Source: Escherichia phage EO1
DNA length: 64,000 nucleotides
Strand: one strand, 5' to 3'
Sequence record: OQ223305.1
The notes under the pieces were generated by a model. That model was not told the DNA's origin and did no database searches. It saw nothing but the letters and a program-made list of their open reading frames with translations. Below are positions 50,007-59,342 of the stretch, one piece after another. The position numbers and the translations under genes are program-made. Position 1 is the first letter of the stretch, and every line of letters starts with the position of its first letter.

Positions 50007-50014
<8 letters not shown>

Positions 50015-50036
50015 GCTGATGAGGTAGTGATACTAT
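50007..50036 (+). promoter_or_regulatory. T4-type early promoter
   Basis: GTTTAC, then 18 nt, then TGaTACTAT. Confidence 0.6.
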
Positions 50037-50066: not shown

Positions 50067-50324
50067 ATGAAAACTTTCAAAGAGTTTGCTACAAAAACTA
50101 CTATCACTGAATCTTCTCACGGTATGGAAGTAAAGCTTGGAATGGCTTTAGCTGAAGCTGAGCGTCTTTTCTCTCGTATTAAAGAACTTGCTGCTGCAGT
50201 CGATCCTTCATCTTTTAAAGGAGACCAAACTAAAGTTAAAGCACTTTTAGCGTTATGCTCCGATGCAGGAGAAATTGCTAAAAATGGTTCTAAGATGAAG
50301 AAACGATTAGAAGATTTAAAATAA
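50067..50324 (+). CDS. internal protein (IP) family member with capsid targeting sequence (ipI position)
   Basis: 85-aa ORF. N-terminus MKTFKEFATKTTITE-S resembles the recalled IP capsid-targeting consensus MKTYQEFIAE with an IxE cleavage motif. It sits next to 57B, where T4 ipI lies. Confidence 0.6.
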   Translation: MKTFKEFATKTTITESSHGMEVKLGMALAEAERLFSRIKELAAAVDPSSFKGDQTKVKALLALCSDAGEIAKNGSKMKKRLEDLK

Positions 50325-50394: not shown

Positions 50395-50580
50395 ATGAAA
50401 CGCTGTGAATTAATTCGAAATGTTGCTATTGCAATTTCTGCTTCTGCTTTTAGTTTTTCAATGTTTGTTGGATTTATATGCGGATTATTGACTACAGCAG
50501 AAAATGTTTTTTCACTTGTAGTAGCATTTTTAATTGGTTTAATTGCTATCGTTATGGATAAAATTTCTAAAGGTGAATAG
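50395..50580 (+). CDS. small membrane protein (two predicted TM helices)
   Basis: 61-aa hydrophobic ORF (AIAISASAFSFSMFVGFICGLL, LVVAFLIGLIAIV) with GAGGAG RBS. Confidence 0.45.
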   Translation: MKRCELIRNVAIAISASAFSFSMFVGFICGLLTTAENVFSLVVAFLIGLIAIVMDKISKGE

Positions 50581-50581
50581 A

Positions 50582-50962
50582 ATGTACAAAGTGTATGCGG
50601 ATTATCAGGCTAATCCATCTGAAAAACCAGGTTGTCAAATTGGATGGGCTCATGATACTTTGCTTGAAGCAGTAGATGCTGCTCAAAAATTGGGATATAA
50701 ATATGTAGAGATTGTTCAACCGTCAGGAAAAGTTATTACTCTTGAAGAGTTCAATAACATTAAACCAAACTTTTTACTTTTTGCAGGTGATAATTATTAT
50801 CCTCGTGGTGGATATGCTGATTTAATAGCGAAAGCCGCTACCGAAGATGAACTCCGTGACATTATCAAAGAAAATGAAAACAAACCAGATTATGGTTCTA
50901 ATCGCTTTGATTGGTGGCAAATTGTAAATGCCAATACTCACACTATTGTTGATGAAGGCTGA
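50582..50962 (+). CDS. hypothetical protein
   Basis: ATG at 50582 with AAGGTGA RBS, within the track ORF that begins at 50543. 126 aa. Confidence 0.45.
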   Translation: MYKVYADYQANPSEKPGCQIGWAHDTLLEAVDAAQKLGYKYVEIVQPSGKVITLEEFNNIKPNFLLFAGDNYYPRGGYADLIAKAATEDELRDIIKENENKPDYGSNRFDWWQIVNANTHTIVDEG

Positions 50963-50964
50963 TA

Positions 50965-51252
50965 ATGATTCTTTATGCTAAAGTATCATCCATTGAAAAT
51001 GGATATAAATACGATCAAGACGCGGCTAAAGCTTTGATTGATGATTATGGTATTTTAACATATTTTGAAGTTGAAAAGGTTTACATTGACCGTTCATCTT
51101 CACAAGTTAAATTAGTAAAGGAAGACCGTAAATTTAATACAGTAAATTTTGATTTCTTCATTAAAACAGAAAAAGGTCCTCTTGAATATGATATTTTCAA
51201 GAATCCTTTGAGTCTTGAATGCATCGTAAATATGTATTATCATAAATGGTAA
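50965..51252 (+). CDS. hypothetical protein
   Basis: 95-aa ORF, ATG 2 nt after the previous stop. Confidence 0.45.
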   Translation: MILYAKVSSIENGYKYDQDAAKALIDDYGILTYFEVEKVYIDRSSSQVKLVKEDRKFNTVNFDFFIKTEKGPLEYDIFKNPLSLECIVNMYYHKW

Positions 51253-51349
51253 ATATGCTTTAAGAATTATTTGTTATTATTAACTCATATCGCACTGATT
51301 AATACCCTCTATCATCAAGGGTTCTTGCTTAAGAGCCTTTGTTAATAAT

Positions 51350-51422
51350 TGGGAATTAGCCAAGTTGGTAAGGCACTGGATTTTGATTCCAGGATGCAAA
51401 GGTTCGAGTCCTTTATTCCCAG
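51350..51422 (+). tRNA. tRNA-Gln (anticodon UUG)
   Basis: Hand-folded cloverleaf: acceptor TGGGAAT/ATTCCCA, anticodon stem CTGGA/TCCAG with loop TTTTGAT, T-loop GGTTCGAGTCC. Confidence 0.8.
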
Positions 51423-51423
51423 C

Positions 51424-51510
51424 GCGAGAATGGTCAAATTGGTAAAGGCACAGCACTTAAAATGCTGCGGAATGATTTCCTTGTGGGTTCGAGTCCCACT
51501 TCTCGCACCA
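51424..51510 (+). tRNA. tRNA-Leu (anticodon UAA), type II, CCA encoded
   Basis: Acceptor GCGAGAA/TTCTCGC, anticodon loop CTTAAAA, long variable arm, GGTTCGAGTCC T-arm, 3' ACCA. Confidence 0.8.
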
Positions 51511-51515
51511 AATTT

Positions 51516-51589
<74 letters not shown>

Positions 51590-51635
51590 ATTTATGACTC
51601 GTCGTGAGACGCTCAGTTCTTTATTAGGGACTGAT

Positions 51636-52244
51636 ATGCATTTTTATCTTTATAAAATAACAAATAAAATTAATAATAAAGTTTATATTGGTGTGCATTC
51701 TACCGAAAATTTAGATGATGGATATATGGGTTCTGGCAAATTATTAAAAAGAGCCCAAGACAAGTATGGTATAGAAAATTTCTCTAAAGAAATATTAGAG
51801 TATTTTGATGATAAAGAATCTATGCTTGAAGCCGAGAAAAATATTGTCACAGAAGAGTTTTTAAATAGACCAGACGTGTATAATTTAAAACTTGGCGGTG
51901 AAGGTGGATGGGACCATATAAATAATTATCCTATGACAGATCAGCAACGTGAATTAATTTCATTGGGTGTTAAAAAGGCGCATTCTAACGGAAAATTAAA
52001 AGGATGGTCTTCAAATGGATTAATGAAGAATGGCTTTGCTGGTAAAACTCATTCTCAAGAAGCTAAACGTAAAATAGCAAAAGCAAACGAAGCAAAAGTT
52101 TCTGCGGATGAAAGAAAAAGAAGAATAGAAATTTCTAAATTATATGATTTTTCTAAGCGTGGTGAATTATCTAAATATGCTAAGCATATTGGCGTAAGTC
52201 ATACTCAAGCAAAAAGAATTCTAAATCAAATTAACAATATATAA
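51636..52244 (+). CDS. segB: GIY-YIG homing endonuclease (SegB-like) inside the tRNA cluster
   Basis: GIY-YIG motif near the N-terminus (YLYKITNKINNKVYIGVHSTEN) and a basic C-terminal DNA-binding region. ATG at 51636 with AGGGA RBS is preferred over the track start at 51594, which abuts tRNA-Gly. Confidence 0.75.
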   Translation: MHFYLYKITNKINNKVYIGVHSTENLDDGYMGSGKLLKRAQDKYGIENFSKEILEYFDDKESMLEAEKNIVTEEFLNRPDVYNLKLGGEGGWDHINNYPMTDQQRELISLGVKKAHSNGKLKGWSSNGLMKNGFAGKTHSQEAKRKIAKANEAKVSADERKRRIEISKLYDFSKRGELSKYAKHIGVSHTQAKRILNQINNI

Positions 52245-52249
52245 TATTT

Positions 52250-52339
52250 GGAGGCGTGGCAGAGTGGTTTAATGCACCGGTCTTGAAAACCGGCAGTCGC
52301 TCCGGCGACTCATAGGTTCAAATCCTATCGCCTCCGCCA
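52250..52339 (+). tRNA. tRNA-Ser (anticodon UGA), type II
   Basis: Acceptor GGAGGCG/CGCCTCC, anticodon stem CCGGT/ACCGG with loop CTTGAAA, long variable arm, 3' GCCA. Confidence 0.8.
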
Positions 52340-52344
52340 GTTTT

Positions 52345-52420
52345 GCTGATTTAGCTCAGTAGGTAGAGCAACTCACTTGTAATGAGAATGTCGGCGGTTC
52401 GATTCCGTCAATCAGCACCA
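52345..52420 (+). tRNA. tRNA-Thr (anticodon UGU)
   Basis: Acceptor GCTGATT/AATCAGC, D-arm TAGCTCAGTAGGTAGAGC, anticodon loop CTTGTAA, 3' ACCA. Confidence 0.75.
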
Positions 52421-52421
52421 A

Positions 52422-52496
52422 GGCCCTGTAGCTGGAAGGTTCAAGCAAGCGACTCATAATCGCCAGATGGTGGTTCAATTCCACCCAGGGCCACCA
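52422..52496 (+). tRNA. tRNA with CAU anticodon (Met, or lysidine-type Ile as annotated in T4)
   Basis: Acceptor GGCCCTG/CAGGGCC, anticodon loop CTCATAA, T-loop GGTTCAATTCC, 3' ACCA. Confidence 0.75.
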
Positions 52497-52509
52497 AATT
52501 AAGAATTAA

Positions 52510-52596
52510 GGGGAGTTATCCCGTAGAGGTAGCGGTGTGGACTGTAAATCCATTGTCATTGCGACTCGGGTGGTTCGACTCCATCACTCCCCACCA
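52510..52596 (+). tRNA. tRNA-Tyr (anticodon GUA), type II
   Basis: Acceptor GGGGAGT/ACTCCCC, anticodon region ACTGTAAATC identical to the bacterial tRNA-Tyr loop, long variable arm, 3' ACCA. Confidence 0.75.
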
Positions 52597-52600
52597 ATTT

Positions 52601-52675
52601 GGATGTGTAGCTCAATGGCAGAGCGATCGCCTGTTAAGCGATTGGTTATAGGTTCGAATCCTATCACGTCCGCCA
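52601..52675 (+). tRNA. tRNA-Asn (anticodon GUU)
   Basis: Acceptor GGATGTG/CACGTCC (one G-U pair), anticodon stem ATCGC/GCGAT with loop CTGTTAA, T-loop GGTTCGAATCC, 3' GCCA. Confidence 0.75.
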
Positions 52676-52789
52676 AATTTGTGACAACTGTCACATTAAT
52701 ATCTACTTGACGCGATTATAGGGGTTGAACTGATCACTCTTCTCTTAATTTCGTGTGAAGACATCTTGATTGTTGGAGTAGGTATTAAT

Positions 52790-52865
52790 GTGGCCGTAGT
52801 TCAGTTGGTAGAACTCGAGATTGTGATTCTCGTAGTCATGGGTTCGACCCCCATCGGTCACCCCA
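52790..52865 (+). tRNA. tRNA-His (anticodon GUG)
   Basis: Acceptor GTGGCCG/CGGTCAC, D-arm GTTCAGTTGGTAGAAC, anticodon stem CGAGA/TCTCG with loop TTGTGAT, 3' CCCA. Confidence 0.75.
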
Positions 52866-52869
52866 ATTA

Positions 52870-52945
52870 CGGGGCATAGCTCAGAAGGAAGAGCAAGGAC
52901 CTTCTAAGTCCTAGGTCGTAGGTTCGATCCCTACTGCCTCGACCA
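52870..52945 (+). tRNA. tRNA-Arg (anticodon UCU)
   Basis: Acceptor CGGGGCA/TGCCTCG, anticodon stem AGGAC/GTCCT with loop CTTCTAA, T-loop GGTTCGATCC, 3' ACCA. Confidence 0.8.
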
Positions 52946-52963
52946 ATTATAAGTGAGGAAAAT

Positions 52964-53314
52964 ATGAAAGGTAATGTTTATTTAGTAGTTCATGATTTAA
53001 CATTTTACTTCAATGAATATGAAAAACATATCTCATTTCGTGAAATTAATTTACTTTATCAACACGCGGATTATATTTATATTCAAAACGAATTTGGTCA
53101 TTGGCAATTTCTCAAAAATCGTTCATTTGGCTTAGATGGTTACGAATACTTTGAACGTAAAGACCTTTTAGATAAAATTCCGTTATCTACGCAATATCAA
53201 AATCACAAATCTTTATATAAATGCCGTCCAATTCGAAATGTTGAATCCGCGTATGAAGCAATTGATTTATGGCGTGAACGCCGTAAACAGATTTATGCTT
53301 TAAAAGAATATTAA
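52964..53314 (+). CDS. hypothetical protein
   Basis: 116-aa ORF with GTGAGGAA RBS, right after tRNA-Arg. Confidence 0.45.
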   Translation: MKGNVYLVVHDLTFYFNEYEKHISFREINLLYQHADYIYIQNEFGHWQFLKNRSFGLDGYEYFERKDLLDKIPLSTQYQNHKSLYKCRPIRNVESAYEAIDLWRERRKQIYALKEY

Positions 53315-53623
53315 GAAGCCGGGTCGCTACCGGTAAGTCGTCGGACTGATGTTCCCTGAGTAAGGAATTGCGTTAATAATCTTTGCGTTTATTGATGCCC
53401 TCTTACATCACAGCAGAAACGGCGCACCGAATTATCGATTCGAGGAAATATCTTTGCCGTAAGCCGAGTAGCGTTTTTGACGGAACGTTCGGATATGGTC
53501 GAGATATGGCCTTTTAAAAATATTGAGTAGCGTCAACTGCTTAATAACCGGGTTCGAATCCCGGCGTTTCGTACAAACACTTGCCTTAGCAGGTGGAACC
53601 CCGACAAGGTTGCCGCAAGGCTT
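53315..53623 (+). ncRNA. candidate structured stable RNA / tRNA-like element (unclassified)
   Basis: About 310 nt with no ORF of 60 aa or more on either strand and visibly GC-richer than flanks. Contains a canonical T-arm (CCGGG-TTCGAAT-CCCGG, 53548-53564) whose 3' flank CGTTTCG can pair with CGGAACG at 53481-53487. Ends at a strong terminator. Confidence 0.3.
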
Positions 53624-53651
53624 AGCCCCGACCGAAAGGTTGGGGCTTTTT
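53624..53651 (+). terminator. rho-independent terminator (copy 1 of a repeated hairpin)
   Basis: AGCCCCGACC-GAAA-GGTTGGGGCT 10-bp stem followed by TTTTT. 25 nt are identical to 54191-54215. Confidence 0.8.
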
Positions 53652-53701
53652 GGTATAAATATAGTAGTATATTAAATCCACGAATTAAAACAGGAAATAA
53701 G

Positions 53702-54175
53702 ATGAAATCATATACTCAATTTTTAAATGAAGCGGTGTTAAATGAAGCATCTAGCACCGAAATTCAAGCTGTCGCAAAAGCAGCCATTGCAGCGGGTAAA
53801 TATTCTTATAAAGATGCTTCTGATGAATCGCGATTCCAGTTCGCACGCGACATGAAAGCGGAAGGATTTACGGGAAATGCAGTTAGTATGGCCTGGAAAA
53901 GTTTAGTTGCTACTGGCGCTGCTTTTGCAAAGGCTTCGGGTAAACCTGCTCCTAAAGCAGATCCTAAAGCTGCACAAGAAAAAAATATTGTTAAAGGAAT
54001 TATCGCTAAATATGAAGCTATCCTTAAAGAGCTTTTAGTAATCAAAACCGAAGGCCAAAAGCTAGCTCGTGCTTATAGTTTCAAAGATAACCCACATGCT
54101 CATGACCTAGAGTATGTTGAAGATCTCCAAAAAATCATCAAAGACCGCATTTGGTCTGCTAAACAAATCAAATAA
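53702..54175 (+). CDS. internal protein (IP) family member with capsid targeting sequence; Ala/Lys-rich
   Basis: 157-aa ORF. N-terminus MKSYTQFLNE-A resembles the IP capsid-targeting consensus with an LxE cleavage motif. AGGA RBS. Bracketed by two copies of the same terminator. Confidence 0.55.
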   Translation: MKSYTQFLNEAVLNEASSTEIQAVAKAAIAAGKYSYKDASDESRFQFARDMKAEGFTGNAVSMAWKSLVATGAAFAKASGKPAPKADPKAAQEKNIVKGIIAKYEAILKELLVIKTEGQKLARAYSFKDNPHAHDLEYVEDLQKIIKDRIWSAKQIK

Positions 54176-54182
54176 CATTCTT

Positions 54183-54211
54183 AGCCCTAGCCGAAAGGTT
54201 GGGGCTTTTTG
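54183..54211 (+). terminator. rho-independent terminator (copy 2 of the repeated hairpin)
   Basis: AGCCCTAGCC-GAAA-GGTTGGGGCT followed by TTTTT. Confidence 0.8.
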
Positions 54212-54342
54212 GTATCTAGGCCTTTCCAGGCCTCTCTAGACATCATTTAGTTTCTACCCTTTATAATATATTATCCTATCCTTTGATTTCCCCTCCCTGC
54301 CCTAGAATTCCCCAAAACTTTTTAAAAATTTTTCACAAAACT

Positions 54343-54373
54343 GTTTACACCCTTGTCATTCCATGGTACTATA
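54343..54373 (+). promoter_or_regulatory. T4-type early promoter
   Basis: GTTTAC at 54343-54348, then TGgTACTAT around 54364-54373. Confidence 0.55.
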
Positions 54374-54415
54374 CAACTATCAACTACTGATACAGAAAAC
54401 AACTTGGAGAATGAA

Positions 54416-54679
54416 ATGGATAATTATGGTGAACTGTTCAACTTCTTTATGAAATGTGTTTCAGAAGATTTTGGTCGTACAGTGAATGATATTAAAGTTA
54501 TCGGTCCTGACCATCCGATGTTTGAAACTTACGCAGTAATGGGTAATGAAGATGGTCAGTGGTATACTGTAAAGGTTGTGATTAACATGTTCACAGCAGA
54601 AGGTTATGTTAAACTGTCTTCTAAAGTTTACCATGATAACGACGAAATCGCAGAAGAATATTTCAATAATATGAAATAA
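54416..54679 (+). CDS. hypothetical protein
   Basis: Track start at 54353 is a TTG inside the promoter. ATG at 54416 with GGAGA RBS gives 87 aa. Confidence 0.45.
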   Translation: MDNYGELFNFFMKCVSEDFGRTVNDIKVIGPDHPMFETYAVMGNEDGQWYTVKVVINMFTAEGYVKLSSKVYHDNDEIAEEYFNNMK

Positions 54680-58868: not shown

Positions 58869-59342
58869 ATGAAAACATATCAAGAATTTATTACTGAAGC
58901 AGCTATTAATTCTCAAATTATTGCTGAATCTTTTACTGATCTTTTGAAATTTAAAAAAGGTCAAAAAATCACTGCTGTATTGGATGATGGTACAGAAGTT
59001 GAGATGGATGTACAGGGATATAATTATGCAGTAGATGGAAAACTGTATAATAAATCTCATGCTAAATTTGATTCATTTGACGACTTTGTTAATACAGTTG
59101 AAGATGAAAAAACTCGTCGATCCATTGCAACTGGTGATGCTAAGGTTCTTATGGCACATGGTCATGAACGCATTCGCGCTAAACAGAATAAAATGGGTGA
59201 AGATAATTTTGCATTAGTTGGTTATCAATCTGGTAAACAAACTTATGGCTATCAACGTACTGCTACCATGTATAATAAAAATGGTAAAATCGCCTTTGTG
59301 AATAGCAAAGGTTCTGTTCAGTATGTCAAATCATTCAAATAA
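58869..59342 (+). CDS. internal protein (IP) family member with capsid targeting sequence
   Basis: 157 aa. N-terminus MKTYQEFITE-A is almost the canonical IP capsid-targeting sequence. AAAGGAAA RBS. Confidence 0.6.
   Translation: MKTYQEFITEAAINSQIIAESFTDLLKFKKGQKITAVLDDGTEVEMDVQGYNYAVDGKLYNKSHAKFDSFDDFVNTVEDEKTRRSIATGDAKVLMAHGHERIRAKQNKMGEDNFALVGYQSGKQTYGYQRTATMYNKNGKIAFVNSKGSVQYVKSFK

Follow-up and report, generated by a model that had tools for sequence, protein, structure and literature searches.

Internal proteins (Ips) are, to our knowledge, the only means that T-even phages have of bringing ready-made inhibitors into the cell just as their DNA enters. The T4-type internal proteins are small and basic, they are not essential and are polymorphic between close relatives, they are found in virions, their genes are bracketed by regulatory elements, and they carry an N-terminal capsid targeting sequence (CTS) of about 10 residues that ends in (L/I)xE and is followed by A or S. 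We analysed a stretch of 64,000 nucleotides of the Tequatrovirus (T4-type) Escherichia phage EO1 (OQ223305.1; the whole stretch is called the window in the following), in which an open reading frame (ORF) of 157 amino acids (aa) at 53702-54175 encodes a protein that shares these properties apart from the presence in virions, for which an orthologue is on a low-specificity protein list of Yersinia phage fD1. The protein is identical to WDS52326.1 of phage EO1 and belongs to the family RB32ORF132c / RB51ORF140 / fD1 g140 / bas37_0244 (phrog_2280). The features of the site from rnaD to e.8 are on the + strand, which is the direction of early transcription.

Four CTS proteins have been characterised and all of them block type IV restriction enzymes: Ip1, Ip2 and Ip3 each inhibit one distinct GmrSD enzyme (PMC12373910) and Bas37_0260 inhibits McrBC (10.1101/2025.11.20.689424). 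The original prediction for this locus, which was made from the letters of the sequence, still spoke of one characterised case and was outdated on this point. The search for internal proteins has so far been centred on two loci that were defined from T4, and the study in which ip1-10 were tested indeed speaks of 'the two Ip loci' (PMC12373910). The 157-aa gene is found at the rnaC-e.8 junction, outside the 57B-tRNA.4 (ipI) and e-denV/vs.8 (ipII/III) loci, and it is this location, not the mechanism, that sets it apart. It further differs from the T4-type internal protein genes in that it has a putative late promoter of its own (the Ip5-like gene of the window has an early promoter ahead), in a much better conservation across genera, in a duplicated cleavage motif and in the lack of any similarity beyond the leader. 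A close precedent is Bas37_0260, likewise an un-named 'hypothetical' CTS protein of a non-T4 Tequatrovirus that was recognised by its leader alone. Phage Bas37 also encodes bas37_0244, an orthologue of the 157-aa gene; unlike that gene, Bas37_0260 is encoded at the ipI locus and showed a phenotype (log2 fold change ~+5 in K-12 comparisons, versus none for bas37_0244 in three host comparisons).

The second closely related system is that of the promoter early stem-loop (PeSL) elements, where a variable ORF lies between two copies of a stem-loop element, a relative has one copy, and recombination between the copies is the proposed mechanism (PMC2839356, PMC4122927). The same can be said of the site studied here, and the second stem-loop, with the early promoter of e.8 some 130 nt further on, fits the PST/T4 pattern. 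Unlike a PeSL, however, the repeated unit is a 36-nt terminator alone, it is specific for the site (two copies in 64 kb) and not dispersed, and a predicted late promoter is fused to its first copy, the term 'late promoter' being absent from the two PeSL papers (PMC2839356, PMC4122927). Membership of the PeSL class was therefore rejected, the promoter being late and the repeat undispersed; the arrangement is PeSL-like.

In our preferred reading, to which we assign a probability of roughly 70%, the product of the 157-aa ORF is an un-named internal (injected) protein of the T-even phages, its gene resides at a third Ip locus, and T4 has lost this gene through recombination of the flanking repeats. 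What is new here is a candidate Ip gene at a locus that was previously unrecognised as an Ip locus.

Twin terminators and the architectures of the rnaC-e.8 site

The 157-aa ORF is bracketed by two copies of a direct repeat. Copy 1 (53621-53656) contains a hairpin (53624-53647) and a U-tract (53648-53652) and is the putative end of the tRNA-rnaD-rnaC unit; copy 2 (54180-54215), with its hairpin (54183-54206) and U-tract, is found 8 nt 3' of the stop codon and would close the late unit. In both hairpins a 10-bp stem is closed by a GAAA loop and followed by TTTTT, and the 25 nt that they had been predicted to share were recovered as an identical block (53632-53656 and 54191-54215). Over the complete repeat 33/36 positions are identical, the spacing from start to start is 559, and the 25-mer has these two occurrences in the window even at 3 mismatches (0 expected). 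RNA folding yielded -21.6 kcal/mol for copy 1 (z -3.9) and -18.5 for copy 2 (z -3.45), and 0/200 shuffles were as stable. The differences between the copies (3 nt, CGA versus TAG) are all in the 5' arm and pairing to the unchanged 3' arm is kept via A-U and G-U pairs, which points to selection on the RNA hairpin itself. Copy 1 is identical in T4, where it is the sole copy. The other internal repeats that were recovered (families D2, D3 and I1) look like chance.

The original prediction had also pointed to a TATAAAT element after copy 1. The element is present and belongs to a full octamer, TATAAATA (53654-53661), that fits the consensus of the T4-type late promoter (gp55), starts two bases past the U-tract and still within repeat copy 1, of which it shares the final 3 nt, and precedes the ATG by 40 nt; a Shine-Dalgarno sequence was read as AGGAAA (53692-53697). 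The window has more of these octamers than expected (24 observed versus 10.05 ± 2.83) and a tandem pair is found just upstream of the lysozyme gene e, a place where late promoters are expected. It likewise follows a hairpin in Klebsiella phage KpV477, and the annotation of phage fPS-65 lists terminators and a 'predicted late promoter' at the same place. The T4 empty site lacks the octamer, and 53600-53700 yielded no early promoter. The unit thus reads: terminator, late box, Shine-Dalgarno sequence, CTS ORF, terminator, and then the early promoter of e.8 (54344-54372; TTTACA-17-TACTAT with TG), which fits the PST/T4 PeSL promoter consensus TTTACW-N17-TAYWAT (PMC4122927) and, together with the stem-loop before it, makes up a PeSL-type composite of terminator and early promoter. 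Judged by these elements, the 157-aa gene would be a self-contained late transcription unit within an early region, with the octamer as its putative promoter. Copy 1, as the strong terminator of the tRNA-rnaD-rnaC unit, would stop read-in and keep the gene silent early, and copy 2 would stop late transcripts from reaching e.8, for which its own early promoter would be used; the outcome would be late-only expression, in time for prohead assembly.

The repeats had been expected to mark indel boundaries, and the alignment across T-even relatives bears this out. At least four architectures occur at exactly these boundaries: i) empty, in T4 and PST, where a single hairpin, without a gene, separates rnaC from e.8; ii) the 157-aa gene alone between two repeat copies, in the window, RB51, RB68 and fD1; iii) a different CTS gene at the same point, in RB14, encoding a protein of 187 aa with the N-terminus MKTYAEFLTEAAK (MKTYAEFLTEA); and iv) both genes in tandem, in HP3, fPS-65, Bas37 (MZ501089) and Mosigvirus PhAPEC2, where three terminators are annotated. 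In the T4 empty site CGCAAGGCTTAGCCCCGACCGAAAGGTTGGGGCTTTTTGGTAT is followed by CTAAGCC, so that its left flank is that of copy 1 and its right flank that of copy 2; such a hybrid is what a crossover at any point of the 25-nt identity would yield. The terminator copies may therefore double as substrates for homologous recombination, where a crossover would remove exactly 559 bp and leave the T4/PST arrangement. In RB14 the unit begins right after GGGGCTTTTT and has its own hairpin (CCCTATC-TAAAT-GATAGGG), followed by the common tail CTTTTTGGTAT and CTAGG. The terminator tail GGGCTTTTTGGTAT is shared by the ends of all units and would let the RB14-type 187-aa unit replace the 157-aa unit or stack behind it. 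The anatomy of the site has been noticed before, as the GenBank record of RB51 describes the ORF as 'flanked by 34 bp imperfect direct repeat' and the features of fPS-65 were annotated, in both cases without interpretation.

The layout is also found further away. In KpV477 (Jiaodavirus), 3' of the tRNAs, there is a hairpin with a UUCG loop, a U-tract, TATAAATA, a CTS ORF (MKFKEFLAEAS...), a different hairpin and an early promoter, where the hairpin sequences are unrelated to those of the window and to each other. An in-frame TAA (...GTAKP*AAKK...) interrupts the KpV477 homologue itself, whose annotation consists of two short ORFs; other Klebsiella phages have intact versions of 177 aa.

The 157-aa gene and its Mosigvirus orthologue have ~72% identity and a dS of ~1.8 (saturated). 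With this depth and the same layout in Jiaodavirus, it is more likely that the empty site of T4 and PST arose by deletion than that the filled site arose by insertion. The 187-aa unit is 97-98% identical across 165 records that include Mosigviruses, as opposed to the ~72% for the adjacent 157-aa gene, and seems therefore to have spread laterally, and recently, into the same joint; the two neighbouring cassettes thus have very different histories. The picture of a portable module delimited by promoter and terminator thus holds with respect to the cassette boundaries but not with respect to a textbook PeSL (the promoter is late, not early) or to an insertion, a deletion from T4 being more likely.

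As an alternative, the twin terminators could be ordinary regulatory punctuation without a role in mobility, in which case the empty site of T4 and PST would record one historical deletion and there would be no cassette site. Such an explanation gains from the confinement of the repeat to the site, where PeSLs are dispersed, from the long residence of the 157-aa gene and from the mutually unrelated hairpins that flank the KpV477 gene. It is difficult to reconcile with the number of architectures at precisely the same boundaries, with the lateral movement indicated for the 187-aa unit, with the common tail in which each unit finishes and with the likeness of the copies within a genome, which suggests ongoing exchange, and we consider it improbable. 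With respect to this likeness, both copies have the arm CCCCTTCC in Mosigvirus, which contains TT and results in two U-U mismatches, where the Tequatrovirus arms read CCCCGACC or CCCTAGCC, and in HP3 and fPS-65 both copies are fully identical. As the copies within one genome are more alike than those across genera, concerted evolution is suggested.

The putative capsid-targeting leader and possible packaging

The N-terminus of the 157-aa protein (MKSYTQFLNEAVLNEA) starts with a CTS-like decapeptide, and the complete leader (53702-53746) can be read as MKSYTQFLNE/AVLNE/A, where the slashes indicate two tandem (L)xE/A motifs, after E10 and E15, at which the prohead protease could cut. Compared to the leader of T4 IpII and IpIII (MKTYQEFIAE/A), residues M1, K2, Y4, F7, E10 and A11 are identical and S3, Q6 and L8 are conservative, and the gp21-type signature of (L/I)xE plus a small residue is present, at the level of the motif, as LNE/A after both E10 and E15. 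The same rule can be applied to IpI, which on translation from T4 starts MKTFKEF...STITE/A: a cut after ITE19 gives a 76-residue IPI*, in agreement with the published size (PMC3012670). The pattern MK.[YFW]..[FLIV][ILVAT].E fits only two ORFs of the window, namely the 157-aa ORF and the IpIV-like ORF at 58869. Moreover, the leader, with its xLxE site, is kept in homologues down to ~35% identity (F7 in 100% and L8 in 91%), with MLKFNEFLAE/G, MINFSDFLNE/G, MKSFSSFLNE/G and MKFKEFLAE/A as leaders of such distant members. The leader that had been proposed for this ORF is thus upheld by the alignment, by the protease motif and by its retention in the family, and the virion data described below point in the same direction.

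In the Tequatrovirus copies 15 nt are duplicated in tandem (TTAAATGAAGC at 53723 and 53738; 53723-53733 and 53738-53748), which creates the second LNE/A of the leader (FLNEA-VLNEA); the orthologues of Mosigvirus and of Klebsiella phages have a single protease site. Cleavage would give a product that starts with AVLNEASSTEIQAVAK (from A11) or with ASSTEIQAVAK (from A16), with a predicted mass of ~15.5-16 kDa, a pI of 9.4-9.5 and 20 Lys versus 4 Arg, where IpII and IpIII have a pI of 9.56 and 9.65, respectively.

Evidence from virions is available for Yersinia phage fD1 (HE956711). Its g140 (157 aa) passed the strict threshold in the liquid chromatography-tandem mass spectrometry of a virion preparation, in a dataset of low specificity (PMC8309999, Table S3; raw data PXD026812), as did the IpIV-like g129, whereas the neighbours e.8 (g139) and g138 failed (PMC8309999). 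As the dataset is not clean, the detection counts as supportive only; it hints that the protein is packaged.

The protein might instead stay in the cytoplasm as an unpackaged late protein, its resemblance to a CTS being a relic or a coincidence. The processing of the N-terminus was read from the motif, clear non-virion proteins are among those listed for fD1, no public source names the family an internal protein, and positions S3, T5, Q6, L8 and N9 deviate from the canonical MKTYQEFIAE. A coincidence would nevertheless be rare, with an estimated chance of ~1e-7 per ORF, on the basis of amino-acid frequencies, for an N-terminal match to M-K-[ST]-[YF]-x-x-F-[ILV]-x-E-[AS], and the leader is among the best-kept parts of the family at ~35% identity. 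In addition, the alternative gene at the site has an even closer CTS (MKTYAEFLTEA) and a dedicated late expression suits a prohead component, so that we regard an unpackaged protein as very unlikely. In the reading that we prefer the 157-aa protein would be made late from its own gp55-type promoter, the CTS would carry it into the scaffolding core of the prohead, and gp21 would trim it after E10 and/or E15; the basic, Lys-rich and all-helical product would then stay with the packaged DNA and enter the next host together with it. These steps, from gp55 transcription to injection, are drawn from established T4 biology.

Conservation, fitness data and the putative role of the protein

The Ala/Lys-rich composition that had been noticed earlier was recovered (28 A and 21 K, full-length pI 9.36, with the stretch KPAPKADPKAAQEK), and the protein may, as had been suggested, bind nucleic acids. 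After the leader follow: a conserved N-domain (aa 17-75), AGKYSYKDxSDESRFQFARDMKAEGF...WKS; a Pro/Ala/Lys-rich linker, GKPAPKADPKAAQEK (53939-53983), around which the predicted local distance difference test score (pLDDT) has its minimum (aa 84-86); and a variable C-terminal helical domain, for which the family has two unrelated versions. The AlphaFold2 model is all-alpha, with six helices. The gene is present in ~510 phage records, in all of which it is called 'hypothetical', and a dN/dS of 0.06-0.11 indicates strong purifying selection; it is frameshifted in fPS-65 and several other isolates.

The codons of the linker contain a run of seven A (53979-53985) that is a hotspot for frameshifts. 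In fPS-65 the run is A9 and the protein is shortened to 112 aa, in RB68 it is interrupted (AGAAAAA), the sequences of teqhal, ECO07P3 and bov10K1 align in two pieces, and shortened clusters of 93-111 aa also exist. These frameshifts could be due to sequencing error, pseudogenisation or slippage.

Searches of Pfam, NCBIfam and PDB sequences with the 157-aa protein gave nothing above noise, PHROGs returned phrog_2280 only ('unknown function'), and Foldseek with the model gave no meaningful neighbour in PDB (best E 4.4) and only the own family in BFVD. No public source calls the family an internal protein, and a literature search by locus tag gave nothing relevant. In a profile search against 1.84 billion representatives 13 proteins were retrieved, all of the same family or chimeras, and a link to Ip1-3 or to known anti-defence families was therefore dropped. 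One chimera, of 94 aa and encoded on a 2.9-kb Logan contig, combines an N-terminus that is tRNA.3-like (...LGYKYVEIVQPTGKVITLEEFNN...; compare 50543-50962 in the window) with the last 34 residues of the 157-aa family, and arose either through natural recombination or as an artefact of the assembly.

By analogy with Ip1-3 and Bas37_0260 we favour a first-response anti-defence role upon injection, although we would put the chance of this at slightly below even; the likeliest target would be a modification-dependent (type IV) restriction enzyme, as for the four characterised proteins, with a probability that is nevertheless low. The main rival to this role is a generic one: the protein would be packaged via its CTS, without a specific host target, and serve as a basic protein of the head core or the DNA, in charge neutralisation or as help in packaging or ejection. 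Its basic, Lys-rich nature (pI 9.4; 20 K versus 4 R) would suit this, given that the lysines of T4 internal proteins touch DNA phosphates (PMC3012670), and so would the purifying selection and conservation over Tequatro-, Mosig- and Jiaodavirus, which is unlike that of quickly swapped effectors, and the lack of a host-dependent phenotype for bas37_0244 in three comparisons. On the other hand, the gene is dispensable, is naturally missing from T4 and PST and is frameshifted in several isolates, the four characterised CTS proteins are also basic and yet are all specific restriction inhibitors, and the conserved folded N-domain (AGKYSYKDxSDESRFQFARDMKAEGF) resembles a specific interaction surface more than a polycation. 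On balance a generic head protein seems unlikely.

Several observations weigh against an injected anti-defence protein or limit how firmly it can be proposed. The virion list of fD1 is unspecific, as it contains 113/277 phage proteins, including DenV, lysozyme e, NudE and a SegB-like protein, together with 672 host proteins. The orthologue bas37_0244 (98% identical) was found to be non-essential in HIDEN-SEQ (29/34 sites hit), and it showed no change in fitness in three host comparisons, including K-12 versus uropathogenic Escherichia coli (UPEC) CFE303 (log2 fold changes of -0.11, -0.30 and -0.14, all non-significant). There is no similarity in sequence or fold to Ip1-3 or to any solved or predicted structure outside the own family in the databases searched (Pfam, NCBIfam, PDB, Foldseek and BFVD), where the fold comparison is based on a model of moderate quality (pLDDT 73, from a 9-sequence alignment). 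The activities ascribed to the late promoter and the terminators are consensus matches. Finally, strong purifying selection and deep conservation across genera would be unusual for fast effectors in an arms race.

In a wider and more tentative version of the injected-protein reading, which we hold to be possible but rather less than even, the rnaC-e.8 junction would be a third Ip locus of the Tevenvirinae that holds up to two stacked units of terminator, late promoter, CTS gene and terminator. No injected protein of the group would then be as widely conserved as the 157-aa family (Tequatro-, Mosig- and Jiaodavirus and a Yersinia phage; lost from T4), which has a conserved N-domain and exchangeable C-domains and would be aimed at a first-response defence of the host. 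As T4 seems to have deleted this site, two CTS families that occur in therapeutic and model phages by the hundreds are still 'hypothetical' and are probably outside the Ip panels that have been tested; their recognition adds concrete candidates for anti-defence screens. The site also offers a compact natural insulator design, 'terminator + late promoter', for the engineering of head-packaged cargo, and a clean example of terminator repeats as recombination joints.

Neighbouring genes and related CTS genes

The gene order of the window agrees with that of annotated relatives such as RB68 and RB51. It comprises: 57B, an Ip5-like gene (50067-50324), tRNA.4, tRNA.3, tRNA.2 and a tRNA cluster that is split by a SegB-like ORF, followed by an RB69ORF150c-like ORF, rnaD, rnaC, the unit of the 157-aa ORF, e.8, nudE, the lysozyme gene e (57889), denV and an IpIV-like CTS gene. 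Both canonical Ip loci of the window are thus occupied by separate CTS genes. The first (50067-50324) is Ip5/IpV-like (phrog_3499, 'internal head protein'), with the leader MKTFKEFATKTTITE/S and an early promoter ahead (50008-50036); the second (58869-59342) is IpIV-like, with the leader MKTYQEFITE/AA, and is found directly 3' of denV without a promoter of its own. IpI, IpII and IpIII are absent from the phage of the window.

The 187-aa CTS ORF (RB14ncORF136c / RB69ORF148c-149c / bas37_0243), which is absent from the window, resembles the 157-aa ORF in its site, its CTS leader, a terminator with the same tail, its assignment to phrog_2280 and its description as 'hypothetical'. It differs in that a degenerate late box precedes it (GATAAATA in RB14, AATAAATA in HP3 and PhAPEC2). 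Despite the common phrog_2280 we do not claim that the two proteins are paralogues, since BLASTP similarity was found in the leader only. In HIDEN-SEQ bas37_0243 (Bas37 MZ501089, 141028-141591) was scored 'Essential' (1/48 sites hit), yet the gene is absent from T4, PST and the window; its neighbour bas37_0244, which has a late unit of the same kind, tolerates insertions (29/34). The authors of that study noted that some of their essential calls (hoc, inh, segC and segE) conflict with earlier work (10.1101/2025.11.20.689424), and the present call might be explained by truncated forms of a CTS protein that are toxic or by a genuine dependency.

To the right the site is anchored by the conserved early gene e.8 (54416-54679). 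To the left, within the tRNA and stable-RNA transcription unit, it is preceded by rnaD (species 2 stable RNA; 53311-53429), with 88% identity in blastn to the rnaD annotation of RB68, and by rnaC (species 1 stable RNA; 53435-53573), which is 98.6% identical to the annotated T4 rnaC and is the last gene ahead of the first terminator. An Rfam scan of 51200-54500 returned tRNAs only; rnaC, rnaD and the hairpin are not represented there by a model. Between rnaC, as annotated, and the terminator lie 50 nt (53574-53623) that are kept in T4, RB14 and Mosigvirus; three small hairpins were predicted here (fold -37.1 kcal/mol, z -3.8, terminator included), and the segment may be part of a precursor or trailer of rnaC. 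The last 4 nt of the RB69ORF150c-like ORF (52964-53314; 116 aa, phrog_3355) lie within rnaD, which starts at 53311; in the tRNA transcription unit a protein gene and a stable-RNA gene are thus directly adjoining.

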